IMG/VR virus record: IMGVR_UViG_2740892439_000007
Location: 1-30,004 of that record
Length of the DNA: 30,004 nucleotides
Direction: 5' to 3' (one strand)
Source: a virus
Lineage: Duplodnaviria; Heunggongvirae; Uroviricota; Caudoviricetes
Shown: piece after piece, positions 7,360 through 28,377 of the stretch
Numbering within the stretch: position 1 is the first letter of the stretch
Layout: each line of letters starts with the position of its first letter
Position numbers and translations under genes: made by a program
Notes under the pieces: model-generated
The model's database searches: none
Seen by the model: only the letters and a program-made list of their open reading frames with translations
Told to the model about the DNA's origin: nothing

Positions 7360-8460
7360 TCACACTGCGCGGAATGCGATTTCGCCAGGTATTACTTCAC
7401 CTTGCCAATACATTTGGGCAGCAACGCGATCTGCGAGGTCACGATAAATAGCCGTAAATTCGCTATCTGGACGACTAATAACGGTTGGTGTTCCGTTATC
7501 CAGATCTTCACGAAGAGAGATATGAAGTGGCATTTGGCCTAACAACTGCGTGTTGTATTTCTCGGCCAGTTTCTGTGCGCCACCGGTGCCAAAAATTGGC
7601 TCGTGATGACCGCAGTTACTGCAAATATGCACACTCATGTTTTCGACGATACCCAGTACCGGCACTTCGACTTTTTCGAACATCACAATGCCTTTCTTCG
7701 CATCGATCAGCGCGATGTCTTGCGGCGTAGTTACCACAACCGCACCAGTTACAGGAATGTTCTGCGCCAGCGTCAACTGAATATCACCAGTGCCCGGCGG
7801 CATATCGAGAACGAGATAGTCCAGATCAGGCCATAGAGTTTCCTGCAACATCTGCATCAGCGCCTTGCTGGCCATCGGTCCACGCCACACCATTGCATTG
7901 TCGTCGGTGACCAGATAACCAATAGAGTTGGTTGCCAGGCCATGAGACATGATAGGTGCCATGTGAGTACCGTCAGGTGAGGTTGGACGTTGGTTTTCCG
8001 CTCCCAGCATGGTTGGAATTGATGGACCATAGATATCGGCATCCAAAATACCAACTTTCGCACCTTCAGCAGCCAACGCCAGTGCCAGGTTCACCGCCGT
8101 GGAGGATTTACCCACGCCGCCCTTGCCTGAGCTGACGGCGATAATGTTCTTAACGCCATTAATGCCTGGTTGGTTTTTGACGCGCTTAAGCGTGGCAATG
8201 TTGTACGACAGCTTCCAGTCAATAGCCTTTGCGCCAGTGATACGGAGCAGATCACCACTACATTGCTCTTTCAGGTCTTCAAAAGGCTTATTCCACACGA
8301 AAGGCATGATTAGTTCGACATGCAGTGTGTCATCCATCAACGCAACATGGTGTAACGCTTTAAGCGTAGTCAGGTTGTGTTTCAGGGTTGGGTGCTGAAA
8401 ATTAGCCAGCGTACCGGCTACCATTGCTCTCAGGGCATCCGGCGATTTGGACTCGCTCAT
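7360..8460 (-). CDS. apbC: Fe-S cluster carrier ATPase ApbC/Mrp
   Basis: 366-aa product with P-loop SSGKGGVGKS and C-terminal CxxC; near-identical to E. coli Mrp as recalled. Confidence 0.95.
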   Translation of the reverse strand: MSESKSPDALRAMVAGTLANFQHPTLKHNLTTLKALHHVALMDDTLHVELIMPFVWNKPFEDLKEQCSGDLLRITGAKAIDWKLSYNIATLKRVKNQPGINGVKNIIAVSSGKGGVGKSSTAVNLALALAAEGAKVGILDADIYGPSIPTMLGAENQRPTSPDGTHMAPIMSHGLATNSIGYLVTDDNAMVWRGPMASKALMQMLQETLWPDLDYLVLDMPPGTGDIQLTLAQNIPVTGAVVVTTPQDIALIDAKKGIVMFEKVEVPVLGIVENMSVHICSNCGHHEPIFGTGGAQKLAEKYNTQLLGQMPLHISLREDLDNGTPTVISRPDSEFTAIYRDLADRVAAQMYWQGEVIPGEIAFRAV

Positions 8461-8617
8461 CCCGTCTCCTTTATTTTAATTTGCGCAATTGTCGCCTTGT
8501 AGTGTACTCCAGCTACGACATTTAATCATTTATGAGAAATGCTGTTATCACATGGCAGACATAAGGCCATTTTGTTACTATCAAGCCCCTTTTCACTACA
8601 AAGAAGTAATGCCTACT

Positions 8618-10651
8618 ATGACCCAAGTCGCGAAGAAAATTCTGGTGACGTGCGCGCTGCCGTACGCTAACGGCTCAATCCACCTCGGCCATATGCTGGA
8701 GCACATCCAGGCTGATGTCTGGGTTCGTTACCAGCGAATGCGCGGCCACGAGGTTAATTTCATCTGTGCCGACGATGCCCACGGTACGCCGATCATGCTG
8801 AAAGCACAGCAGCTTGGTATCACACCGGAGCAGATGATTGGCGAAATGAGTCAGGAACACCAGACTGATTTCGCAGGCTTTAACATCAGCTATGACAACT
8901 ATCACTCGACGCACAGCGAAGAGAACCGTCAGTTGTCTGAGCTTATCTATACTCGCCTGAAAGAGAACGGTTTTATTAAAAACCGCACTATCTCTCAGTT
9001 GTACGACCCGGAAAAAGGCATGTTCCTGCCGGATCGTTTTGTAAAAGGCACCTGCCCGAAATGTAAAGCGCCAGATCAATACGGCGATAACTGTGAAGTC
9101 TGCGGCGCGACCTACAGCCCGACTGAACTGATTGAGCCGAAATCGGTAGTTTCTGGCGCTACGCCGGTAATGCGTGATTCTGAACACTTCTTCTTTGATC
9201 TGCCCTCTTTCAGCGAAATGTTGCAGGCATGGACCCGCAGCGGCGCGTTGCAGGAGCAGGTGGCGAACAAAATGCAGGAATGGTTTGAATCCGGCCTGCA
9301 ACAGTGGGATATCTCCCGCGATGCGCCTTACTTCGGTTTTGAAATTCCGAACGCGCCGGGCAAATATTTCTACGTCTGGCTGGACGCGCCGATTGGCTAC
9401 ATGGGTTCCTTCAAGAATCTGTGCGACAAGCGCGGCGATACCACCAGCTTCGATGAATACTGGAAGAAAGACTCCACCGCCGAGCTGTACCACTTCATCG
9501 GTAAAGATATTGTTTACTTCCACAGCCTGTTCTGGCCTGCCATGCTGGAAGGCAGCAACTTCCGCAAGCCGACCAACCTGTTTGTTCACGGCTATGTGAC
9601 GGTGAACGGCGCGAAGATGTCCAAGTCTCGCGGCACCTTTATTAAAGCCAGCACCTGGCTGAATCATTTTGACGCCGACAGCCTGCGTTACTACTACGCT
9701 GCGAAACTCTCTTCGCGCATTGATGATATCGATCTCAACCTGGAGGATTTCGTTCAGCGCGTGAATGCCGATATCGTGAACAAAGTGGTTAACCTGGCCT
9801 CCCGTAATGCAGGCTTTATCAACAAGCGTTTTGACGGCGTGCTGGCAAGCGAACTGGCTGACCCGCAACTGTACAAAACCTTTACTGATGCCGCTGAAGT
9901 GATTGGCGAAGCATGGGAAAGCCGCGAATTTGGTAAAGCTATCCGTGAAATCATGGCATTGGCTGACCTGGCTAACCGCTATGTCGATGAACAGGCTCCG
10001 TGGGTGGTGGCGAAGCAGGAAGGACGCGATGCCGATCTGCAGGCGATTTGCTCTATGGGCATTAACCTGTTCCGCGTGCTGATGACGTACCTGAAGCCGG
10101 TACTGCCGAAACTGACTGAACGTGCAGAAGCATTCCTGAATACAGAACTGACCTGGGATGGTATCCAGCAACCGCTGCTGGGCCATAAAGTGAATCCGTT
10201 CAAGGCACTGTATAACCGTATCGATATGAAGCAGGTTGAAGCACTGGTGGAAGCATCTAAAGAAGAAGTGAAAGCAGCTGCCACGCCAGTAACTGGCCCG
10301 CTGGCAGATGATCCGATTCAGGAAACCATCACCTTTGATGACTTCGCCAAAGTTGACCTGCGCGTGGCGCTGATTGAAAACGCAGAGTTTGTAGAAGGTT
10401 CTGACAAACTGCTTCGCCTGACGCTGGATCTCGGTGGTGAAAAGCGTAATGTCTTCTCAGGCATCCGTTCCGCTTATCCAGATCCACAGGCACTGATTGG
10501 TCGTCACACCATTATGGTGGCTAACCTGGCACCACGTAAAATGCGCTTCGGTATCTCTGAAGGCATGGTGATGGCTGCTGGCCCTGGCGGGAAAGATATC
10601 TTCCTGTTAAGCCCGGATGTCGGTGCTAAACCTGGCCACCAGGTTAAGTAA
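8618..10651 (+). CDS. metG: Methionine--tRNA ligase
   Basis: [25 protein letters not shown] (HIGH motif), KMSKS, C-terminal tRNA-binding domain; near-identical to E. coli MetG as recalled; the track ORF start at 8489 is an upstream alternative codon. Confidence 0.97.
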
Positions 10652-10673
10652 TTAAGCAACCATTCTTCACAAT

Positions 10674-10697
10674 GCCCAGCAATACGCTGGGCATTTT
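10674..10697 (+). terminator. metG rho-independent terminator (gcccagc aatac gctgggc + TTTT)
   Basis: 7-bp stem and T-run 22 nt after the metG stop. Confidence 0.8.
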
Positions 10698-10735
10698 CAT
10701 ATAGACACAACCCCTTCTGACTTTAACAAACCCTA

Positions 10736-10799
10736 AAACAATTTGTTTTCTACCTTTTGTTGATTGAGATAATAAGCCACATAAGAAAACAAATTGTTT
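10736..10799 (+). promoter_or_regulatory. Promoter with two perfect operators (10736-10748 AAACAA-T-TTGTTT; 10787-10799 AAACAA-A-TTGTTT) flanking an extended -10 TGAGATAAT (10765-10773)
   Basis: Operator centres 51 bp apart, the same spacing as at 15412/15463. Confidence 0.65.
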
Positions 10800-10812
10800 C
10801 GGAGTGGTTGAA

Positions 10813-11112: not shown

Positions 11113-11282
11113 AGTGTATAAGCGGATCAATGAGTTACGGAAACAGTTAATAATGAGGAGCTTGTAATAAGCTGTATACCCTAGAAAAGCTAGACTAGGG
11201 AATAAAATGACGTGAAACTGGGCGGGACAGTAAATAATTCCGAATGATAATTGAACAAATAACCCCTTGCTCGGAGCTTGGA

Positions 11283-12482
11283 ATGACTGATACCGCTTTT
11301 TCAAAATCGTTACAAAAAGAAGTCGATCCTGAGCAGTACTTGGCGCTAAAGAATTTAGATGACAGCTCGGTTCATGCTATTGCCCGTGACGATATCATCT
11401 GCCCCATTTGCAAAGTTGGAGGTGGTTCGTTCGTTAGAGCCACTAGGAATGGTGGCTATCACAAGAAGGCGCATTTCAGATTTACCGGTGAAGATGGTCA
11501 AGGCCATCATCCATCATGTGATTTCTATGGAGATAGATTAACATCTGAGGTGAAGCAGCACCTTGTCTCATTCACAAAAGATCGAACAAAGTATTCGCAG
11601 GTAATACGAAAGCTGGTCTGTGCCGGCATACAGGAAGGGATATTTACTCAAGAAAAAATGTGGCAGATGAGGGAATGGTTCTTCAATAAGCGAAAGGATT
11701 CCACATTTGAAATATGGTTAGAAAGCGAGCATTTAGACTGGCTTTATTATATTAGTGGGTTACGTGATGCATATCTAGCATGGACAACTCCTGATATTCT
11801 ACCTTTCGCGCCCATTCAGGTTACTGTCCCTGGTTTTTCTTGGAGGCGTGCGATTGACAAAGAGGTGCTAAGAGTTCACATCAAGACTCTCCAGCAATTG
11901 CGTGAAATTTCAGTCTCACATAGTGACATTGCTGTAATCTTAGAACACATAAACAATAATCGTGACCGCACAATTCTCGATCCATCGCATTTGGAGGACG
12001 AGATAAGTAAGACCTATAAGCTTACTAGTTTTGTGATGGGCAATTACATTGAGTTTCAGACAAAAACGGTTAGCGACAGAGCATACGGGGAAGCTAAGTT
12101 TCTGGCATTTGCAGCACTTTTGTTGTTCGTGTCAGATTGGGACCTCAACATTGCTATTGGTAAGTTTTCTAAGATTGCCAGAGTGAAGGAGGTTGATGAC
12201 ATGCTGGCTGGTAATTTCATTGGTCTTAATCCTTACTTCCGATACGACCTGGCTAATGCAGTGAAGAGATTGCAGGATAACTGGCCGATTGAATACCAAG
12301 AGTTGGAGCATTGGAATGTTGAGAAATCCATGCGTGACGCATATGAAAAGTGGCGTGCGACAGAGCTGAATTCGCTCCACCCCTATTGCCAGACTTGTAT
12401 ATTGCCAAACATGAGAAAGAAGTCGCACAAGACGAGCAAGTCAGGCAGTGGATTAAGAACGGGGATGTTTGATTGTAATTAG
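11283..12482 (+). CDS. Hypothetical protein (about 399 aa) with an N-terminal Cys/His cluster (CPICK ... HHPSCDF)
   Basis: ATG at 11283 has GGAG 6 nt upstream, whereas the track start at 11244 has no RBS; no family recognised. Confidence 0.65.
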   Translation: MTDTAFSKSLQKEVDPEQYLALKNLDDSSVHAIARDDIICPICKVGGGSFVRATRNGGYHKKAHFRFTGEDGQGHHPSCDFYGDRLTSEVKQHLVSFTKDRTKYSQVIRKLVCAGIQEGIFTQEKMWQMREWFFNKRKDSTFEIWLESEHLDWLYYISGLRDAYLAWTTPDILPFAPIQVTVPGFSWRRAIDKEVLRVHIKTLQQLREISVSHSDIAVILEHINNNRDRTILDPSHLEDEISKTYKLTSFVMGNYIEFQTKTVSDRAYGEAKFLAFAALLLFVSDWDLNIAIGKFSKIARVKEVDDMLAGNFIGLNPYFRYDLANAVKRLQDNWPIEYQELEHWNVEKSMRDAYEKWRATELNSLHPYCQTCILPNMRKKSHKTSKSGSGLRTGMFDCN

Positions 12483-12616
12483 CTTAATCAATCAGTTGAT
12501 AATGGCGGTCACAATTTGATTCTTTTCTATAAGAACCCGTTGATCGCCACTACTCCCCTCCCATACCAGCAATCACATCATTAAATATCAATAGGTTAAC
12601 GTTGTTTATACCAATA

Positions 12617-13330
12617 AGAAAACAACTAAATAACAGATCAACGAAACATCAACGCTTTCTCCCGATTTGGTCTAAAAAATTGACGTTATCACACATCACT
12701 TCTTATACCCGTAATTCTACGCAGCAGATAGCGCCACAGCGTCCAAATTTCACCACAAACGACTCAACACACTACCAACAAAAACACACGCTCAAAATCG
12801 CTCCCGTTGCGTTACACAACCATATAAACAACTTATTTTCAGGCATAACAAAACAACTAAATAACACATATGACATTCCCCAAAACAACCAACCTCTTTA
12901 TGGCAGGCTACCGAAAAGACCCACCTCTTCTCCCCAGGCTACCGGACAACCAACCTAACTTTCACAGGCAATCCGAAAACATTCATACGCGCGATACCCA
13001 CGACACGCCATTCCCCAAACAGCGAAGAAACACCAGAATCACTGAAACCCCAACGAAGCCTGTTACCGCAAGGATTCTCTCAATCCCAAAAGACACGAAA
13101 CATAACAATCACGGGAAACGCCATTACCCAATACACGAATAACTACAAAAGCCCTTCACGCACTCCAGACAAACAACTCAAACACAATAACGAAAGCAAT
13201 CGCCCACCTGCCATTACTCCATACACGGAGAAGAACAATCACCAAAACGACGAGAACACCCCATAGAAGAACCACCGCAAAACGAACGAAACCATTTACA
13301 CCGACAGAGAGAACAACACACCCAATTCAC
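12617..13330 (+). other. About 0.7-kb noncoding tract with strong A+C strand bias (roughly 75 percent A+C on the plus strand) and internal repeats
   Basis: Hand counts on two 60-nt lines gave 75 and 77 percent A+C; track ORFs here are low-complexity P/T/N/Q/H-rich translations. Confidence 0.7.
12888..12981 (+). repeat. Three tandem ~30-bp direct repeats (CCACCTCTT...CCAGGCTACCG family)
   Basis: Units at about 12888-12920, 12921-12950, 12951-12981; same family as 15811-15900. Confidence 0.6.
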
Positions 13331-13466
13331 CAACAGAAATAGTCGCCGTATAGAACATTCTGGAAGGAGTGAGCATTAACGCCTATAGAGAGGTTGAGAC
13401 AGATAAACACGAAGAAAACACAACATGTATAGCGAAGAAGCCAGGTATGTATAAGTGGGGAGGGAA

Positions 13467-13488
13467 GGAGGGGTGTCGCCTCCTTTTT
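13467..13488 (+). terminator. Hairpin plus T5 terminator candidate at the end of the AC-rich/purine-rich noncoding tract
   Basis: ggagg ggtgtcg cctcc followed by TTTTT. Confidence 0.45.
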
Positions 13489-13547
13489 CGTATTTATTCA
13501 ACTCCTGATTTTATCCCCCGTAACACCCCTACGGTCAGCCTTCGGTC

Positions 13548-13700
13548 CATACAGGGAAAAGGCTGCATCCCGCTACAGAAACGGCTGGGTTGCCTTCGGG
13601 GAACGGCTGGAGGTTTTCAGGGAAACGGTCGAGTTGCCTGTGTGGATTTCGGGAAAAGGCTCGATGCCGGTTCAGGAACGGTGGCGTACCGGTATAGCGA
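13548..13700 (+). repeat. Iteron array: six direct repeats with core GG(G)AAA(C/A)GG at about 22-bp periodicity
   Basis: Cores at about 13564, 13587, 13608, 13630, 13661, 13685. Confidence 0.65.
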
Positions 13701-13998
13701 GAGGGAGAGTTGCGGCTACCCACCTGTAATGTGCGGGAAGAAGAGAGGCGCTCACGTGCAGGCGGACTAACTTACCGTTGGACTCCCTCTGAATGCCCAA
13801 CTACAGCGTAATTGTGCCAGAGAGTCAGCGGGTCACAATCGATTTCAGTAGGTTTTCGGGGAGAGGATTATTCTGCCCACCAGCCACTTTCGGCCACCAA
13901 ATCAGAATAATGTAAAAAGTGTACTCGGTACTGAACCTGAAAACTCACTGCCAAAACCACATTCACCGGAATAAAATCCTTTTTCGCCTGTGCGTTAT

Positions 13999-14033
13999 TG
14001 CGATAATAACACCAACAAGAAAACATGTTGTTT
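13999..14033 (+). promoter_or_regulatory. Extended -10 promoter TGCGATAAT (13999-14007) plus operator AAACAT-G-TTGTTT (14021-14033)
   Basis: ttgcgataataacaccaacaagaaaaca is identical to 15440-15467. Confidence 0.65.
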
Positions 14034-14045
14034 AAGGATTGATTT

Positions 14046-14375
14046 ATGTTTGCACATATCGACATCAACCAAATCAAGAAATTAACTCAAAAAGAGTTTG
14101 ATCAGTTTTATGAGTTAGAAGGTTGGTCTTCCACTCTGATCAATTCGCGGTGGGTGCTTGAGCTGATGACTCGTGATGACGCACCTGCTTTGATGATTTG
14201 CGACATGGGTGAAGATGCTGACTTTATGGATATGAGCGAATTTTGTGTGGACACATACAACCGCAGCCAGAAGTACTACTTCACATGCGATAGCGAAAAT
14301 GACGTGATTTCTAAGGTCTATCTTCACCTCGTCCAGCATTGGGACGTTCAGGAGTTTCTTGAGGTATTCGCGTAA
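14046..14375 (+). CDS. Hypothetical acidic protein (109 aa)
   Basis: ATG 13 nt after the operator; Asp/Glu-rich. Confidence 0.65.
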   Translation: MFAHIDINQIKKLTQKEFDQFYELEGWSSTLINSRWVLELMTRDDAPALMICDMGEDADFMDMSEFCVDTYNRSQKYYFTCDSENDVISKVYLHLVQHWDVQEFLEVFA

Positions 14376-14481
14376 TCCCAACCAAAGCCAGCATTGCTGG
14401 CTTAATTTCTCTATAGCCGCAGGGAAGAACCTACATATCGCTCATGCACCTGATCAATATGCTTTGTAGCCGTTTTCTTAC

Positions 14482-14517
14482 TGGTATCATTTACGCCATT
14501 GAGAAAACAAGTTGTTT
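14482..14517 (+). promoter_or_regulatory. Extended -10 TGGTATCAT (14482-14490) plus perfect operator AAACAA-G-TTGTTT (14505-14517)
   Basis: Same architecture as the other cassettes. Confidence 0.6.
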
Positions 14518-15368: not shown

Positions 15369-15377
15369 ACCAGCCAA

Positions 15378-15400
15378 TGGCGCGTAACCCGCGCCATTTT
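15378..15400 (+). terminator. Rho-independent terminator (tggcgcg taacc cgcgcca + TTTT)
   Basis: 7-bp GC stem plus T4 after the stop at 15368. Confidence 0.75.
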
Positions 15401-15411
15401 CCCCAACCCGT

Positions 15412-15475
15412 AAACAAGTTGTTTTATGCCTATCCTACATTGCGATAATAACACCAACAAGAAAACAAGTTATTA
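15412..15475 (+). promoter_or_regulatory. Promoter with operators at 15412-15424 (perfect) and 15463-15475 (degenerate) flanking extended -10 TGCGATAAT (15441-15449)
   Basis: Operator centres 51 bp apart, as at 10736/10787. Confidence 0.65.
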
Positions 15476-15494
15476 ACGCAGTGAGGAAACGCAC

Positions 15495-15776: not shown

Positions 15777-15810
15777 GAGGGGAGGGCCACCGATGCTGGT
15801 GGCCATCAAT

Positions 15811-15900
15811 TACCACCTGCTTTCCCGCAGGCTAAAAACACCCACCTCTTACCGCCAGGCTACCGAAGCACCCACCTGTTCCCGTCCGGCTACCGCAACT
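15811..15900 (+). repeat. Three exact-period 30-bp tandem direct repeats (cCCACCTnnTTnCCnnCaGGCTAcc...)
   Basis: Units at 15811-15840, 15841-15870, 15871-15900; related to 12888-12981. Confidence 0.65.
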
Positions 15901-15928
15901 TTCCACTTTGACGCCTTATTCGTACAAC

Positions 15929-15961
15929 GATAATTAATACCAACAAGAAAACAATTTGTTA
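15929..15961 (+). promoter_or_regulatory. -10 GATAAT (15929-15934) plus operator AAACAA-T-TTGTTA (15949-15961)
   Basis: Same cassette family. Confidence 0.55.
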
Positions 15962-15981
15962 TTTACGATAAGGAATTAATC

Positions 15982-16464: not shown

Positions 16465-16471
16465 CTGAGAA

Positions 16472-16496
16472 GAGGGCCAGAAACGGCCCTTTCTCT
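16472..16496 (+). terminator. Terminator candidate (gggcc agaaac ggccc + TTTCTCT)
   Basis: Hairpin 8 nt after the stop of CDS 15982-16464. Confidence 0.55.
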
Positions 16497-16513
16497 ATAG
16501 CCACCAGCTGCCG

Positions 16514-16629
16514 CAGGGAAATTTTCAGAAACGGCGAGGAACGTATTCATGAGCCGACGGGAAACGGCCAGGATTTTTTCGGGAAACGGCTGCATTCGCC
16601 TTTATGTAGAAAAACATCGGGAAGCTGGT
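16514..16629 (+). repeat. Second iteron array (GGGAAACGGC-type, about five units, two of them exactly 22 bp apart at 16559 and 16581)
   Basis: Same core as the 13548-13700 array. Confidence 0.6.
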
Positions 16630-16717
16630 GGAATCCAACCAGCGGTTGTCGGACAGGTGAGCGGGGAAAATCATGATGACTTTCGTCGCCTGAGACATCC
16701 AGATTTCTTTCGTAGCG

Positions 16718-16735
16718 TAATCACATATGTGATTA
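16718..16735. promoter_or_regulatory. Perfect 18-bp palindrome TAATCACATATGTGATTA
   Basis: Exact dyad; a further TGTGATTATGTGA...TCAC repeat lies immediately downstream. Confidence 0.4.
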
Positions 16736-16878
16736 AGTGGTGTGATTATGTGAAAAATCACGCGCACATAATACGCGAGCGGATACGGAACAAAACAAAA
16801 TGCCGATCCGCGCCGACAAATAAACGCGGATCATAAAGCAAGACTAAAAGCCAATGATTAACCATACTCTATAGCGCA

Positions 16879-17085
16879 ATATAACGCGTTTTAAGCGCGT
16901 TAATGTGTTAAGTAATGGGTATGTACTGGTAAGGATATAAAAGCGCGTCTATGGCGTTATTTTGGCGCTTATTTTTATGTTGTTGGAGTGAGTTAAAGAC
17001 AATAAAAAACGCGCTAATGATGGCGCGTTATGGTGGGAGTATTGGAAACGAAAAAAGCGCCCATAGTGGGCGCTCGATTTTATTT
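16879..17085. repeat. Array of four related GC-core hairpins, each preceded by an A-run (about 16879, 16936, 17002, 17057)
   Basis: Inverted repeats taacgcg/cgcgtta, aacgcgc/gcgcgtt and gcgccca/tgggcgc are exact; the second unit is imperfect; the last is followed by a T-rich tract. Confidence 0.5.
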
Positions 17086-17150
17086 GTGTAAACTGATTTT
17101 AAATCCCATTTCTACAAACGCTTTTAACATTAAAAATATATCAGCGTCGT

Positions 17151-17309
17151 TCACGTCTGCTTTTTTCGCTCCTGGTCGCTCAATAAGTCAATTTTGCGCG
17201 TCGTTTCATCTATAAGCTCGACTGAGCGCCCAGCGTAACCAGCGATCCCAGCGATGCGATTAACAAAATATTCATTGCGCACGTTAACGCCAGCGATAAG
17301 AATAAACAT
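17151..17309 (-). CDS. Small protein candidate (52 aa, hydrophobic N-terminus MFILIAGV, charged C-terminus)
   Basis: ATG with AAGGAG 7 nt upstream; bracketed by two identical hairpins (gcgcccatagtgggcgc at 17057 and 17327); the track's longer N-terminus overlaps the upstream terminator. Confidence 0.3.
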   Translation of the reverse strand: MFILIAGVNVRNEYFVNRIAGIAGYAGRSVELIDETTRKIDLLSDQERKKQT

Positions 17310-17322
17310 GATTAAGCTCCTT

Positions 17323-17343
17323 AAAAGCGCCCATAGTGGGCGC
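17323..17343 (-). terminator. Rho-independent terminator for CDS 17357-18016 (gcgccca tag tgggcgc plus T-run on the minus strand)
   Basis: Hairpin 14 nt after the stop, followed by TTTT in minus-strand sense. Confidence 0.7.
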
Positions 17344-17356
17344 AAGATTCCATTAA

Positions 17357-18303: not shown

Positions 18304-18828
18304 TTAAAATGGAAGGATTCGTTCAACCCAATCGAAGAAAACAAGTATTTTTCTGCCGTCTTCTAACTTAAGAGTGACCTGGCAAGCATCAACGCCTCTT
18401 GACACCCCTTCAATTTCACGACCGTCTGCCATGTAGACCCTTATAGATTGGTCGTTTTGATAAGCCTTGCGACATATCGCAAAAAAGTCACGGCGTGATG
18501 GCTGATTGTCAACATAGTCTGGATGTATTGTTAGCCTACCTTTGAACTCGCGAGCAATGCCATCGATTACACCTGATTCAATTGTGCTAATGCGCTCAAG
18601 TGGGAGTCTTATACGATTTTCTTTATCATATGGAAGCGGGCATAAATCTAGCTTATTGCGGGAAGGCATTGTCCCCTGAACGTACATGCAAAACACCTGA
18701 CCGTCTTCAAGCGTGACTCTTACAGGAATGTTGTTCTTCCGCCAGAACATAAGTATGTTTTCAGCATGTTCGTAGTCTCGCGGCCAGACTTCAGCCGGTA
18801 TGCCGTAGGTGATGTCCGATGTTCTCAT
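18304..18828 (-). CDS. Tandem Rof (YaeO)-like domain protein (174 aa)
   Basis: Two internal repeats each resembling E. coli Rof as recalled (DY...LEDG ... ExRxRLxxIS/T): VRVTLEDGQVF...ENRIRLPLERISTI and IRVYMADGREI...VTLKLEDGRKILVFFDWVERI. Confidence 0.55.
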   Translation of the reverse strand: MRTSDITYGIPAEVWPRDYEHAENILMFWRKNNIPVRVTLEDGQVFCMYVQGTMPSRNKLDLCPLPYDKENRIRLPLERISTIESGVIDGIAREFKGRLTIHPDYVDNQPSRRDFFAICRKAYQNDQSIRVYMADGREIEGVSRGVDACQVTLKLEDGRKILVFFDWVERILPF

Positions 18829-24889: not shown

Positions 24890-25522
24890 ATGACGGTCGA
24901 AAAAGACGAGGTAAAAACTCGCCTGACACCAGCGGAGTGGGCCGAAGCTGAAGCCAAATGGACGTCAGGCGAATATACACTCTCAAAGCTGGAGGAAGAG
25001 TACGGCATTCGTCGTGAAACACTCTCCAGACATTTCAAAAAGCGAGGATTAGAGAAAGGCGCGGACTCTGTTGGGAAGATGGTTCGTGAGTCTCTTAAAT
25101 CTGACGCAGAGCTTCGCGCTAAAGCCCGTGCGGAAAAGATAGAAGAACGTCGTACACGTTATGACGGCTGGGCGTATGCGTTGGGGCAGATGGTGATGGT
25201 CGAAGTCACTACGGCCAAACGTGAGAGTAAGCCTTTAGGGGCGATTGAGGATTCTCTCAAGAGCTTACAGAGAGCCAGTAATACCCTTGCAAAATGCTTT
25301 GAAGTTTCGTCCAAAGCATTGGGCATGGATCATGCGGAAAATGACGAGGAAGAAATTCCGAACCTGGTATTTGGTGAGCTTACACCTTCCCAGGTGGCGA
25401 AATTACGTCAGGAAGACGACGAGCCTGAAATCATCGATGACGAATTGCTTGAGACGTTGGAAGAAGAAGCTCTAAGCGAATTTGATGCGACAGATGATGG
25501 AAGTGAAGGGGAGGACGAATAA
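24890..25522 (+). CDS. Terminase small subunit candidate (210 aa)
   Basis: Position directly upstream of TerL; acidic C-terminal tail; stop overlaps the TerL start. Confidence 0.6.
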   Translation: MTVEKDEVKTRLTPAEWAEAEAKWTSGEYTLSKLEEEYGIRRETLSRHFKKRGLEKGADSVGKMVRESLKSDAELRAKARAEKIEERRTRYDGWAYALGQMVMVEVTTAKRESKPLGAIEDSLKSLQRASNTLAKCFEVSSKALGMDHAENDEEEIPNLVFGELTPSQVAKLRQEDDEPEIIDDELLETLEEEALSEFDATDDGSEGEDE

Positions 25523-26777
25523 TGGCAATCCCGTCCTCGCTCAGTCTTGTGCAACTGCATTCTGGACAGATGAAAGTCTTCCAGTCTCCGCATCGATTTA
25601 AAGTTGTTTGTGCTGGTCGACGCTGGGGAAAATCCCGGTTGTCGATCTCCACTATTATTCGTGCGGCGGCAAAGGAAAAAAAGCAAAGGGTCTGGTATGT
25701 CGCTCCTACTTACCAGATGGCTCGCCAGATTTTGTGGGACGATCTACAGGAAGTTCTGCCTCGTAAGTGGGTTAGGAAAAAGAACGACACCACGATGACA
25801 ATCGTGTTGAAGAACGGTTCGGAGATCGCCCTCAAAGGTGCTGATAAGCCTGACACTCTGCGCGGCGTAGCGTTGCATTTTGTAGTGCTTGATGAATTTC
25901 AGGATATGAAGCTGACACCTGGTACAAGGTGTTACGACCTACTCTTTCATCGACACGCGGCGGTGCACTGATCATTGGTACGCCAAAAGGCTTCTCGGAA
26001 TTTCACAAACTGTGGACTATAGGCCAGAACGTAGAGTTGCAAAGAAAGGGACAGTGGAAGAGCTGGCAGTTTGTAACTGCCGATTCTCCGTTTGTACCTA
26101 CGGCGGAAATTGAAGCTGCTAAGAACGATATGGACCCCAAATCGTTCGCTCAGGAGTACCTGGCCAGCTTTGAGAACATGTCCGGGCGCGTTTACTACCC
26201 GTTCGATCGTAACGTGCATGTAAAACCGCTTCAGTTCAACCCTCGGTTGCCTATATGGGTAGGGCAGGACTTCAACATTGACCCGATGTCTTCAGTAATT
26301 TTGCAACCTCAGCCAAATGGTGAGCTATGGGCAATTGATGAATTGGTGCTCTTTTCCTCTAACACGGCAGAAGTTTGTGATGAGCTTGAGAGACGCTTCT
26401 GGCGCTGGAAATCACAGGTAACGGTATTTCCAGATCCGGCAGGTGCTTATCGCCAACATGCTCGTGGGGAGTCTGACGTAGACATATTCAAAGAGAAGGG
26501 ATTCTTACGTGTCGATTATTCGAAAAAGCACCCGCCAATTGCGGATCGTGTTAATGCTGTTAACCGAATGCTGATGTCCGCATCTGGAGATATCCGGCTG
26601 TATATCGATCCGAAGTGCAAGCATTTGATTGATTCACTGGAAAAAGTTATCTACAAGCCTGGAACACGAGATATGGATAAGACAGGTGGCATTGAGCATA
26701 GTGCAGACGCATTGGGCTATCCAGTACATCGTAGGTATCCAGTCAAAAACCGTGTTATTCTTGGTGGTTCTCGATAG
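25522..26777 (+). pseudogene. Terminase large subunit interrupted by a -1 frameshift
   Basis: Walker A (VVCAGRRWGKS) and Walker B (HFVVLDEF) in the first ORF; the second ORF's frame is open from 25896 and encodes the nuclease half. Confidence 0.8.
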
Positions 26778-26803: not shown

Positions 26804-28377
26804 ATGGAATTGAACGACAAACAAATTAAGGATCTGGTGGCGCGACGCCACCCGGAATACGAAAAGAAAAAAGAACATTGGGACTTCCTCGCCAGCACTT
26901 ACGCTGGCGGGCGTGGTTGGTTTACAGACAATATCTTTCGTTACTTTAAAGAGGGAGATCAGGAGTTTAAGGAGCGTGTTGAGCGTGCCTATCGCTTCAA
27001 CCACACTCGTGAGGTGGTAAACCTCATCAACAAATATCTCTTTAAAGAAGACATTAATAGAAATATCGAAGAGGCACCAGAGCAGATCCGCAATTTCTGG
27101 AAACGTGCGACTCGCCAGAATGCCTCTATTGACTCATTTATGGCCGCCATTGATTTGCAATCGTCAATCTACGGCCGTATCTGGGTTGTTGTTGATAGCA
27201 CAATGAGTGGTGATGTTGAGTCAGTAGCTGACGAGAAAAAGAAAGATGCTCGTGCCTACGCCTACTGGATTTCACCTCAGCAAATGCTGGATGTGGCATG
27301 GGACGACGACGGGAATATGTTATGGGCGTTAATTGTGGAAGTCGCTCGCGATGACGCAGATCCTTTTACTTCTACAGGTCAGGAATACCAACGTTATCGT
27401 CTGTGGACACAAAACGAGTGGTATCTGTTCCGTGAGGAAGTGAAGAAGGGGGCTGGTGGAGCAGGTCGTCGTCAGGCAAAAGTTATTTTAGAGGACAGCG
27501 GCGCGCATAATCTCGGCGTAGTTCCTGTGTTTCCTGTTGATTGTATTGGAGAAAGTGAATCACCGTATTTCAGCCCATCGTTGATCGATGATATCGCTTA
27601 TCTTGATCGTGCGGTTGCAAACTATCTGTCAAACCTTGATGCCATTATTCAGGATCAGACATTTAGCCAGTTGGCTATACCGGTACAGTCGCTTTTACCT
27701 GGTGATGAAAACCACACTAAAGTGCTTGAAATGGGCACAAAGCGAGTCTTCACCTACGATTCTGAAGGTGGAAACCAGCCGTTTTATCTGTCACCAGACC
27801 CGAAACAAGCTCAGATGATCATCACTACGATTAAGACGGTGATTAACGAAATCTACCATTCAGTTGGTGTAGCTGGTGAGCGAACGAAGCAGGACAACGC
27901 ACAGGGAATCGATAATTCATCTGGTGCCGCAAAAATGTATGACTTCCAGCGTGTAAATAGCTTGCTTGTCACAAAAGCAGAGCGTCTGGAAAGGCTGAAC
28001 GCCAAATCATGCTACTGGTTGCGAAATGGATGGGGGTAGATCTGGACGAAGACCACTCTTTAATTGCGTATCCAGAAAGTTTCGATATTCGTGGCCTTAC
28101 AGATGAATTTTCTGTTGCCGAGAAACTGTCATTACTTCAGGCACCGGACTCTGTACGTCGTCACCAGATGGAAATGCTTATTGAGAAGATTTTCCCGAAC
28201 ATTACTGAGGCGATGAAAAAGGAATTTGATAAAGATCTCTTGAATTTTCCTCCAAAAAATGATCTAAATACCCTTGAAAATAAGTCAGTACTTACTTATG
28301 ATCGTGGTGCAGCCCAAGAAAGCGGGCAAGATCAACCCCGAGGGAATGGGGACTCATCTACTCAAGAGAACGAGTGA
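26804..28377 (+). pseudogene. Portal protein (T7 gp8-like head-tail connector family) interrupted by a -1 frameshift
   Basis: GESESPYFSPSLIDDIAYLDRAVAN resembles the T7 gp8 segment GESYGRSYIEEYLGDLRSLE as recalled; the frames switch near AAA at about 28003. Confidence 0.65.

Follow-up and report, generated by a model that had tools for sequence, protein, structure and literature searches.

The closest described systems are Rho-dependent terminators (lambda tR1, trp t', rho, and the mgtA/corA leaders), with which the tract described here shares an untranslated, unstructured, C-rich and G-poor RNA, a same-strand position 3' of a transcribed gene, an apparent loss of the RNA signal across the tract, and an upstream stem-loop that could protect a trimmed 3' end. 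It differs from known rut sites in being ~10 times longer, in its genus-spanning invariant blocks and four repeat families, and in that A is as enriched as C. The left-end zone of T7 (bases ~150-350) is also noncoding and repetitive, with an A+C fraction of.61-.72 and ~10% G, but it comprises ~200 bp of CCTAAAG heptamers beside the terminal repeat, whereas our tract spans 0.8 kb, is internal and far from the terminase gene, and has longer, different units. T4-type phages reportedly carry mobile intergenic regulatory cassettes (promoter-early stem-loops), in which repeated terminator, promoter, and leader modules flank small exchangeable early genes. The tract shares such modules but is gene-free, far larger, and a conserved element rather than a shuffled one.

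Two further comparisons concern RNA function and replication. Sponge RNAs (CsrB/CsrC, RsmY/Z, CrcZ) likewise repeat short motifs within a long noncoding sequence, and AUACACGGAG, contained in the GCCATTAC repeat unit of the tract, is close to the SELEX consensus for CsrA, RUACARGGAUGU. However, CsrB has ~1 GGA per 17 nt, as compared with 4-11 per ~850-900 nt of the tract in most lineages, and the tract lacks a promoter, lysogen expression, and any Rfam relationship. In R-loop origins (T4 oriF/oriG, ColE1), as here, a promoter reads into a strongly strand-asymmetric zone, and our element brings a T4-like replisome and an RNase H of its own but lacks an evident lytic initiator. Unlike these origins, the tract has no unwinding element, its leftward RNA would be G/U-rich rather than purine-rich, and the promoter is gone in a third of lineages. 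In the literature we found, the tract is not described.

Results

We analyzed a window of 30,004 nucleotides from an SSU5/pHCM2-like phage-plasmid, in which the tract is housed in a gene-free gap of 1.56 kb (positions 12483-14045). On the plus strand, positions 12617-13330 contain A, C, G, and T at fractions of.399,.322,.119, and.160; the resulting A+C fraction of.721 compares with.503 over the whole 30 kb. A sequence-only reading of this DNA had estimated ~75% A+C over ~700 bp, which is essentially right if slightly high. The sliding-window check shows the tract standing out, with A+C of up to.78 in 100-nt windows. Over the full span 12617-13488, A+C is only.683 because the final 158 nt are purine-rich (A.352, G.289), in agreement with the purine-rich turn noted earlier at the end of the tract. 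In the genome of phage Cyrano (101.6 kb), the tract peaks at.75 A+C against.502 ±.036 for 400-nt windows (~+7 SD) and is the sole outlier, with no other 400-nt window above.62.

The plus strand is nearly all A and C and is therefore unable to fold and without an ORF. When 150-nt plus-strand windows of the 30 kb are ranked by foldability, the ten weakest all fall within 12526-13276, with minimum free energies (MFE) of -3 to -17 versus a mean of -36 ± 8.5; the minus strand folds ordinarily over the same interval (MFE -23 to -40). In 78-nt windows, the C/G ratio is at least 2 almost unbroken over 12496-13269 (~770 nt), with a median of 2.6 and a maximum of 6.4, as compared with a median of 0.91 for the whole window. 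A rut site calls for at least 70-80 nt of untranslated RNA with more C than G and little structure, and the tract has each of these properties. The rut-like composition proposed by the sequence-only reading is thus supported as far as sequence can carry it, and the analysis confirms that the A/C-rich tract is real and more than chance.

We found only two ATG codons, no GTG codon, and no Shine-Dalgarno (SD) sequence in 791 nt of the tract. Its longest open frame (131 codons) is that expected from composition (106 ± 28 in shuffles), and substitutions lack 3-periodicity (.160,.158, and.161 by codon position). A conserved coding frame was looked for in the homologues and none was found, with stops breaking the same frame at different places in different lineages. 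These findings support a noncoding tract and bear out the earlier statement that it contains no credible ORF.

The element begins with a conserved 5' block, B1 (12483-12560, plus strand), which starts ~10-30 nt past whichever gene lies upstream and is nearly invariant in 10-12 lineages. B1 contains a two-tier hairpin, GGCGGTCAC...GTTGATCGCC (12503-12549), with a 9-bp outer stem predicted in the window and in Enterobacter. Its consensus fold has 2 of 108 cells broken, and covariation is uninformative because no pair varies. Inspected by eye, B1 does not fit a sigma-54, sigma-32, ops/RfaH, or boxA site. Directly 3' of the hairpin lies a G-free, C-rich run (12550-12600, plus strand), the sequence of which is clade-specific and the composition of which is kept: the 24 nt past GATCGCC are C-rich and almost G-free in ~50 homologues despite clade differences.

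A copy of the leader motif CCAATAAGAAAACAA follows at 12611-12625, identical to the copy at 240-254 and located within an invariant block, AAGAAAACAAnTAAATAACAnATCAA (12611-12652, plus strand). The motif has 10 matches at up to 3 mismatches where 1.6 are expected, and 0 of 100 shuffles reach 10. The earlier description has the tract begin after a promoter-like leader. This motif is present but is without the extended -10 TGCGATAAT that the seven real copies carry, and the block also has no operator-palindrome right half, SD sequence, or ATG.

The A+C-rich, G-poor, unstructured tract itself (12617-13330, plus strand) contains several repeated or invariant motifs. AAACAACTAAATAACA is present exactly twice, at 12620 and 12851. 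A cluster of CGTTGAY/TTGACG motifs with the invariant TCTTATAC(C) occupies 12643-12716, with sites at 12643 and 12654 on the minus strand and at 12688 on the plus strand; others are found in B1 at 12495 and 12538. Here, TGACG...CGYCA forms a small hairpin or palindrome that is followed by T5-6 when read on the minus strand and that scored as minus-strand terminator-like in Enterobacter and pHCM2. In the rightward promoter-like arrangement TTGACG-17/18-TATACC (12688-12716), the -7 T is missing, and the sequence could just as well be a small palindrome. An operator-like element and a second leader-like copy, ATAACAAAACAACTAAATAACA, lie at 12825-12869 (plus strand); the operator is a full palindrome, TAAACAAGTTGTTTT, in most lineages and is degenerate in the window.

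Three tandem 31-nt units of the form ACCCACCTCTT-N6-CAGGCTACCG-N4 (12880-12971, plus strand) are 65-71% alike and kept in all lineages, so that both the twice-occurring repeat and the three ~30-bp repeats of the sequence-only reading were recovered. They are followed over 13007-13238 (plus strand) by ~28-nt repeats of the GCCATTAC type (GCCATTACyCmATACACGGAGAAGAACA), present in 3 copies in the window and in 5-6 in Salmonella/Enterobacter lineages. GCCATT-type 29-nt units start at 13007, 13120, and 13210 in the window, where GCCATT is seen 3 times versus 0.17 expected; CCATTAC is seen 6 times versus 0.1 expected in the homologue L039 (0 of 300 shuffles). An AA periodicity of ~11.4-11.9 nt occurs in three related lineages and is not beyond chance for one spectrum.

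The tract passes into a purine-rich transition (13331-13461, plus strand) with an invariant GTATAAGTGGG and an insertion of ~55-60 nt at 13381-13440 that is private to the window's lineage. It ends at a hairpin with a purine-rich 5' arm and a pyrimidine-rich 3' arm (13462-13488, plus strand; -25.8 kcal/mol, z -2.86), which in the window has the G+C-rich stem and following U-run (T5) of an intrinsic terminator. Over 23 distinct sequences, 77.6% of cells in the arms are paired versus 46-60% in slid controls; the +1 slide control shows covariation at least as good. The T-run is confined to E. coli-clade sequences of the alignment, the others reading TTTCT, TTTCC, or TTTTC, and in Enterobacter the hairpin does not fold stably (-11.8 kcal/mol, z +0.9). 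The hairpin terminator proposed earlier as the end of the tract is hence found in the window, but the T-run and stable fold are absent in Salmonella/Enterobacter lineages. The putative T5 terminator is thus lineage-specific.

Further downstream lies a G-rich, strongly folding 3' domain (13500-13740, plus strand) with ~six GGGAAAMGG(C)/GAAACGG repeats and CUUCGG/CUACGG motifs. Its consensus RNA structure is weak (RNAalifold, -22.9 kcal/mol, covariation term -0.2). A long-range helix closing the tract, CTTATACC:GGTATAAG, was considered and set aside as unconvincing, with one compensatory event and one wobble intermediate. A leftward sigma-70-like promoter candidate is found at 13811-13838 (minus strand), with a -35 element TTGTGA (13838-13833), a 16-nt spacer, and TGG followed by CACAAT (13819-13811); in other lineages it reads TTGAGA-16-TGGCAGAAT. 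It is the sole promoter-like site of the gap kept in at least 8 of 12 lineages, and the scanner found it in L004 and L005 as well. In SSU5/pHCM2, a leftward 80-aa ORF takes the place of this stretch. The right-hand limit of the element is the promoter/operator/leader cassette of the next gene (13966-14045, plus strand), which contains TGCGATAAT, CCAACAAGAAAACATGTTGTTT, and an SD sequence and precedes an ATG at 14046.

We compared the tract with other intergenic regions of the window. The gaps at 10652-10803, 14376-14498, 15369-15494, and 15777-15981 have C/G ratios of 1.6-1.8 versus 0.72-1.21 for genes. In the last of these, a gene-end hairpin is followed by the same 31-nt C-rich repeats, which form a second three-unit array (15809-15900) before the next promoter. 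A G-rich array resembling that at 13500-13740 is found at 16500-16610, after a terminator hairpin (16473-16495). Milder forms of the tract layout thus close other rightward units. In the rest of the phage-plasmid, the tract matches only shared operator and leader motifs, and similarity or complementarity to E. coli chromosomes was found at 0 of 282 places.

Using the invariant block AAGAAAACAAnTAAATAACAnATCAA as search pattern, we collected ~58 homologues. The gap and its A/C bias recur in elements from Escherichia, Salmonella, Enterobacter, Klebsiella, Cronobacter, Citrobacter, Kluyvera, and Buttiauxella, and the tract is present at full length and in the same place and orientation in several hundred plasmids from at least 8 genera. 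Among 5,426 complete E. coli genomes, 243-246 carry it on plasmids. The element appears confined to the SSU5-type family, since a second conserved pattern yielded one new locus only. Such phage-plasmids are common in clinical Enterobacteriaceae, and the variable slot that immediately precedes the tract carries their defense and resistance cargo.

The flanking genes are swapped between relatives on both sides. In all six homologues that were read on both flanks and have a gene directly abutting the gap downstream, this gene is on the plus strand. The family of the first downstream gene changes from lineage to lineage, providing no constant partner protein. Of 8 homologues read upstream, 7 have their upstream gene on the plus strand; in one Klebsiella pneumoniae plasmid this gene points away from the tract, which is still kept. 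Across genera, ~250 of 630 tract positions do not vary, and some blocks retain 90-100% identity. Overall identity is 65-73% versus 80-85% for shared coding neighbors, and the tract thus evolves faster. A+C is.77 in invariant,.67 in intermediate, and.59 in variable columns, and the substitution spectrum is stationary. That invariant positions show the strongest A/C bias suggests that selection, not mutation pressure, maintains it. An otherwise intact 113-kb plasmid tolerates an IS3 inside the tract (13255-13257), and the tract is hence not needed for plasmid maintenance.

We found no conserved sigma-70-like rightward promoter anywhere in the gap and no plus-strand site of this type in the window or in four homologues (phage-specific promoters lie outside these scans), and no canonical intrinsic terminator between the upstream stop codon and the tract. 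In published RNA-seq of Cyrano lysogens, the upstream gene reaches 59-587 FPKM, whereas the first 357 nt of the tract, in a stretch beginning 110 nt past the upstream stop codon, show 0-2 FPKM in the same samples; these values come from a per-gene table, with strandedness not established, for one relative (96% identical here) and for lysogeny only. Some genes downstream of the tract are expressed in lysogens.

Discussion

Our tentative reading, which we consider a good possibility short of an even chance, is that the tract is a noncoding cis element acting as an outsized Rho-loading terminator or insulator on rightward transcripts. Polymerase leaving the variable, lysogen-expressed upstream gene would first transcribe the B1 hairpin, then the G-free C-rich run and ~0.8 kb of RNA that can be neither folded nor translated. 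Rho would bind this naked RNA with its excess of C over G and release polymerase, and exonucleases may then degrade the unstructured tail as far as the B1 hairpin, so that the upstream message would have this hairpin as its stable 3' end. A back-stop could be provided by the purine/pyrimidine hairpin, with T5 in the window's lineage, and by the strongly folding G-rich repeats. The downstream genes, which have their own operator-controlled extended -10 promoter, would be shielded from read-through, and insulation may be the selected function.

In favor of the Rho reading, the plus strand is C-rich, unstructured, and untranslatable, its orientation is conserved, A/C appears to be under selection, and RNA appears to be lost at the boundary in the close relative Cyrano. 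However, a rut site needs ~80 nt and the tract is ten times longer, and an element defined by composition only would explain neither the ~250 invariant positions nor the four over-represented repeat families. In Cyrano, RNA has already vanished by ~120 nt past the stop codon, whereas at Rho terminators it usually decays gradually; B1 might therefore terminate by another mechanism, with the tract having no role. The tract is also kept where the Klebsiella pneumoniae upstream gene points away, and some of the supposedly protected downstream genes are expressed in lysogens.

It is unlikely, though worth serious consideration, that the tract is instead a DNA-level hub, a cis site for lytic functions. 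It could be the lytic replication start of the T4-like replisome, possibly R-loop-primed from the leftward promoter, or a regulator-binding array (enhancer or roadblock). This would fit the uniqueness of the tract within the genome, its conservation of blocks between genera, and its several direct-repeat families, among them three 31-bp units of ~three helical turns each. The element encodes UvsY, a gp32-like SSB, a RecA/UvsX-like protein, SbcCD, RNase H, helicase, primase, and Pol III alpha, but none of its genes is evidently a lytic initiator. The sole conserved sigma-70-like promoter is directed leftward into the tract, and leftward transcription would give a non-template strand GC skew of ~+0.45. 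Positive GC skew of the non-template strand favors R-loops. The tract is, moreover, dispensable in the plasmid state and silent in lysogens.

Yet a search of the tract for IHF sites, DnaA boxes, GATC, and an AT-rich unwinding element returned nothing origin-like: the boxes and the unwinding element are missing, and GATC is depleted. The RepA iterons CTCTCTATAGTGGATA are 33 kb away and unrelated to the tract repeats, and the 31-nt array and the GGGAAACGG repeats are not origin-specific because they are found at other intergenic sites. The leftward RNA would be 40% U, making for weaker RNA:DNA hybrids, the leftward promoter is absent in 4 of 12 lineages, and an array of double-stranded sites does not itself require one unfoldable strand. 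A plasmid (RepA/iteron) origin or copy-control locus was rejected, with repA as distant as its iterons, DnaA boxes lacking, and IS3 tolerated.

A long noncoding RNA of the lytic phase, ~0.8-1.2 kb from the plus strand and acting in trans, appears quite unlikely. It might act, for example, through repeated single-stranded motifs or as naked C-rich RNA soaking up a host factor such as Rho. The layout does resemble a transcription unit, with a leader, an unstructured body, a hairpin, and a structured 3' domain against 3' exonucleases, and most of the few G/U residues sit in repeated motifs; the scarcity of G and U would be expected to restrict RNase E cleavage as well. The sequence-only reading had raised the idea of a long noncoding RNA, but an autonomous gene of this kind is unsupported because no sigma-70-like rightward promoter is conserved; the leader copy is without its extended -10, and the tract is silent in lysogens (0-2 FPKM). 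An Rfam search to E<=5 gave nothing at gathering score and one chance match at E=2, the consensus structure is weak with its covariation term of -0.2, and neither E. coli chromosomes nor other parts of the element proved complementary to the tract. Hfq ARN/AAN runs are not above shuffles, and GGA is far sparser in the tract than in CsrB and about at composition level in the 3' domain. An Hfq sponge and a CsrA sponge were accordingly discarded, the former on its ARN runs and the latter with only 4-11 GGA per ~850-900 nt in most lineages and up to 17. We regard it as a long shot that induction yields a stable, rightward, unfoldable, G/U-poor RNA of ~0.8-1.2 kb that ends in a structured 3' domain and serves in trans as a decoy for host Rho or another single-strand RNA-binding factor ('Rho sponge').

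We also find it doubtful, and indeed decidedly improbable, that the tract is a functionless, ORF-less, decayed remnant of early-region regulatory cassettes (terminator, C-rich spacer, operator, leader). The leader, operator, 31-nt array, and G-rich repeats are shared with other gene boundaries, the tract is less conserved than its coding neighbors (65-73% versus 80-85%), and it tolerates IS insertions, a 200-nt insertion, and the private 55-nt insertion. Decay would, however, erase a 7-SD composition outlier rather than keep it, and full length, place, and orientation are retained in several hundred plasmids of at least 8 genera though the flanks are replaced, with blocks of 90-100% identity and a bias that is strongest at the most conserved positions.

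A role as a packaging region or terminus of the virion DNA, comparable to the A/C-rich left-end zone of T7, is very unlikely. The comparison, made by the sequence-only reading, is correct as to composition (T7 bases 150-350 are.61-.72 A+C with ~10% G and CCTAAAG repeats), and one Cronobacter record begins 285 bp before the tract, but no mark of a DNA end is seen. A heptamer array is lacking, and the tract is placed amid the rightward early region, with the small terminase gene (24890-25522) 11.4 kb downstream and the end of the Cyrano record ~13 kb further on. Record starts in circular assemblies are arbitrary, the tract is found at many different coordinates, and contig breaks within it coincide with IS insertion points. 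That the tract codes for an unusual low-complexity protein, rich in Pro/Thr/Asn/Gln/His/Lys, can almost be dismissed: two lineages do have open frames of 210-228 codons (P ~0.003-0.007 versus shuffles) and some annotators call ORFs here, but the calls vary in position and strand between records, the frame is interrupted elsewhere, codon periodicity and a conserved start or SD sequence are lacking, and the repeat blocks are kept at all three codon positions.

The tract is an unannotated core element, which pipelines leave blank or fill with spurious ORFs. Were it to insulate universally through Rho, this would account for the swapping of arbitrary constitutive cargo without activation of neighboring phage genes, and the tract would represent a natural, portable 'super-terminator'. 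A Rho-sponge RNA, if true, would mean that host termination or silencing is switched off during lytic growth. Should the tract prove to be a lytic origin or to produce a lytic RNA, it would mark the switch point between plasmid and phage life in the SSU5/pHCM2-type family.

An unfoldable A+C-rich tract in a conserved gene-free gap

The 1.56-kb gap (positions 12483-14045) is flanked by ORFs at 11244-12482 and 14046-14375; it is unannotated in RefSeq, and the ORFs placed in it by other annotators disagree with each other. The tract it contains (12617-13330) is 72.1% A+C and 11.9% G on the plus strand, compared with 50.3% A+C for the whole window. Along the 101.6-kb genome of the related phage Cyrano, 400-nt windows have a mean A+C content of.502 +/-.036; the tract reaches.75, and all remaining windows stay at or below.62. 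This bias is far beyond chance. The other features described in the sequence-only reading were likewise all recovered: a purine-rich turn in the final 158 nt of 12617-13488, a hairpin followed by T5 (13462-13488), a 15-nt leader at 12611 that exactly copies the one at 240, a 16-nt repeat, and three 31-nt tandem units.

The composition of the tract translates into a physical property, namely that its plus strand resists folding. When 150-nt plus-strand windows of the 30 kb are ranked by foldability, the ten weakest fall within 12526-13276 (-3 to -17 kcal/mol versus -36 +/- 8.5), and the minus strand folds normally there. Then follow 350 nt (13426-13800) that fold more stably than anything else nearby (-48 to -51 kcal/mol). 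Each of the 23 distinct sequences has a purine arm opposite a pyrimidine arm in the hairpin at 13462-13488, with 77.6% of cells paired versus 46-60% in slid registers; its covariation is no better than that of a slid register, and its T-run is lineage-specific. We found no convincing consensus RNA structure in the G-rich 3' domain and no Rfam family matching the tract.

Distribution and genomic setting

The relatives of the window are SSU5/pHCM2-type phage-plasmids: an E. coli plasmid (NZ_CP020118) is 99.4% identical to the region, and the phages Cyrano, CMS-2020a and PhiR41_1 are 94-97% identical. The window also encodes terminase, portal, ParB-like, MetRS, ApbC and S24-peptidase genes. As annotated in relatives, region 7360-10651 holds the methionyl-tRNA synthetase gene (8489-10651) and, adjoining it, an ApbC/MinD-like ATPase gene (7360-8460, minus strand). 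The large terminase (25522-26777) is split into two overlapping ORFs of 149 and 282 aa and the portal (26804-28377) into two of 411 and 122 aa, whereas each is a single gene in Cyrano (418 and 524 aa), a difference that reflects either frameshift mutations in a defective phage or sequencing errors. A 174-aa protein (18304-18828, minus strand) matches Pfam Flag1_repress (FljA, the phase-1 flagellin repressor; E 5e-81) and has a weak Hfq-like stretch at its C terminus (E 1e-3). FljA binds the fliC mRNA leader, and for the phage-plasmid protein the target could be host flagellin or the A/C-rich leaders of the element itself.

A sensitive search located the gap in 838 plasmid records from Klebsiella, Escherichia, Enterobacter, Salmonella (including pHCM2), Citrobacter, Cronobacter and others. 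Eight annotated homologues were read in detail, and roughly 50 others, Kluyvera and Buttiauxella among them, came from a search by sequence pattern. The bias holds in all lineages, with some 800 nt of plus strand at.62-.80 A+C followed by a G-rich stretch. The upstream neighbours vary by lineage (coiled-coil, DUF262, GIY-YIG and DUF1380 proteins among them), and on the downstream side the family of the first gene also changes from lineage to lineage; the gap thus forms a conserved island with a variable slot on either side. Its conservation is not above that of core genes, the tract being 65-73% identical versus 80-85% for shared coding neighbours, and comes in blocks, runs at 90-100% identity alternating with looser spacers.

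Large IncHI1B/IncFIB plasmids of Klebsiella (190-250 kb; L124, L125) retain only the first ~460 nt of the gap, the homology stopping within the 31-nt repeats; there it adjoins a type I restriction-modification operon and a DUF262 gene, and the same DUF262 cargo is found upstream of the tract in one Klebsiella phage-plasmid. A contig of 604 bp assigned to the actinomycete Catenulispora yoronensis (NZ_BAAAQN010000196.1) is 71% identical to the 5' part of the gap and probably represents enterobacterial contamination of that assembly. An insertion of ~55-60 nt (13381-13440), private to the window's E. coli lineage, adds one AAGAAAACA copy at 13412.

Selection on composition

The A+C content is.77 at invariant,.67 at intermediate and.59 at variable columns. 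The opposite trend would be expected from a local mutational bias, and the alignment thus indicates that the bias is selected. Substitutions follow the spectrum of a composition that is A/C-rich and stationary. The absence of a credible ORF, noted from the sequence earlier, was borne out: the longest open frame in the window is 131 codons, versus 106 +/- 28 in shuffles, as low T and G predict. A frame that is open in two lineages is interrupted at differing places in others, substitutions lack codon periodicity (.160/.158/.161), and 791 nt contain two ATG and no GTG codons, none with a Shine-Dalgarno sequence. A protein-coding tract is the least probable reading of all and close to excluded.

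Modules shared with other gene boundaries

The modules that make up the gap are also found at the borders of other genes in the rightward early region. Seven window genes are preceded by an early-gene cassette consisting of an extended -10 TGCGATAAT, a leader CCAAYAAGAAAACAA (plus strand; 240, 954, 10778, 14012, 14496, 15454 and 15940) and a palindrome AAACAAnTTGTTT, a likely operator; a second palindrome often covers the -35 region. Further AAACAAnTTGTTT-type sites occur at 10736, 15412 and 24837, and leader-like matches number 10 versus 1.6 expected. The tract carries the leader copy at 12611, which lacks a -10, an operator-like site at 12825, a second leader-like copy at 12845, and three 31-nt C-rich units at 12880-12971. 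A second array of three such units (15809-15900) follows a gene-end hairpin and directly precedes a promoter (15908-15940). That hairpin (GGCCACC/GGTGGCC, 15785-15804) has a Chi site (15795-15802) spanning its loop into the 3' arm.

GGGAAAMGG repeats of the gap (13540-13700) recur in similar form (GGGAAACGG) at 16500-16610, directly after a terminator hairpin (16473-16495). The surrounding stretch (16465-17350) is also gene-free, is the meeting point of rightward and leftward gene blocks, and contains a Chi complement and several further hairpin/T-run terminators. A minus-strand Chi (GCTGGTGG, 13877-13884) lies just right of the G-rich repeats and is kept in most lineages retaining the stretch. 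Units of 28 nt of the GCCATTAC type number three in the window and five to six in other lineages (6 versus 0.1 expected). Apart from shared operator and leader motifs, the tract has no similarity or complementarity to the rest of the phage-plasmid. Two Kluyvera homologues have a second exact AAGAAAACAAATAAATAACA elsewhere in the element, within a TTTATTTGTTT-N13-AAACAAATAAA inverted repeat, which suggests that the invariant block 12614-12635 is half of a longer operator type. Several early-region intergenic spacers show a milder bias (C/G 1.6-1.8 versus 0.72-1.21 in genes), of which the tract is the extreme, with C/G 2.7 over 714 nt.

A plasmid origin was rejected: in Cyrano the repA gene sits 33 kb from the tract together with its 21-bp-spaced iterons, which the tract repeats do not resemble. 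An IS3 is inserted at 13255-13257 in pECAZ155_2 (NZ_CP019002.1), which shows that plasmid life does not require the tract. In a second homologue (L022) the tract is interrupted by another IS, and these points are also where several short-read contigs end, marking a permissive or frequent IS target.

Apparent loss of rightward RNA and its possible causes

We found no sigma-70-like promoter pointing rightward in the gap, either in the window or conserved among lineages. The only conserved candidate promoter of the gap points leftward (minus strand; -35 13838-13833, extended -10 13819-13811) and is kept in 8/12 lineages; the SSU5/pHCM2 group has a leftward 80-aa ORF instead. The only experimental data we found bearing on the tract are per-gene RNA-seq values, given as log2(FPKM+5), for Cyrano lysogenizing E. 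coli LF82 (PMC9928086, S1 table). The gene upstream of the tract is at 59 FPKM in LB and as high as 587 under other conditions, and an annotated 'ORF' over the first 357 nt of the tract has 0 FPKM in LB and ~2 where the upstream gene peaks (PMC9928086). The 3' domain has 1-20 FPKM, not tracking the upstream gene, and beyond it the next real gene shows independent activity of its own (PMC9928086). As the silent 'ORF' begins 110 nt past the upstream stop codon, this step suggests that rightward RNA is lost at the very start of the element. We found no canonical intrinsic terminator at this point, only the hairpin (12503-12549) of the conserved 5' block B1 (12483-12560) and a G-free C-rich run.

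As the likeliest reading we tentatively propose an outsized terminator/insulator of the Rho type that acts on rightward transcription, with Rho as a candidate factor. Polymerase would transcribe the B1 hairpin and then naked C-rich RNA, on which Rho would load to release polymerase; the unfoldable tail would be trimmed back to the B1 hairpin, and the downstream hairpin and structured repeats would form a back-stop. Such a role would account for the strand and orientation, the lack of structure and translation signals, the selected composition, the placement between cargo that is expressed and genes under separate regulation, the step in the RNA-seq values, and the smaller versions seen at other boundaries. 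The tract most resembles a rut zone in composition and context, but would be an atypical one, far longer and sequence-conserved. A tenfold excess length, ~250 invariant positions and four repeat families are left unexplained, and B1 alone could suffice for the abrupt RNA loss.

Three other readings therefore keep substantial weight. The first, a DNA-level hub or lytic origin, is about half as probable as the terminator; the tract contains no DnaA boxes and is depleted in GATC. A lytic-phase RNA acting in trans is a more doubtful reading; the tract shows no enrichment of Hfq-type ARN runs, no CsrB-like GGA density, and nothing similar or complementary to it in 5,426 E. coli chromosomes. Functionless cassette remains are slightly less probable again, set beside the selected composition. 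A genome terminus or packaging region is close to excluded; the A/C-rich zone at the T7 left end resembles the tract in composition only.

We found no description of the tract in the literature searched. Within a phage-plasmid family that is both widespread and clinical, it stands out as a unique kilobase, under selection and 'unfoldable' in a strand-specific way.
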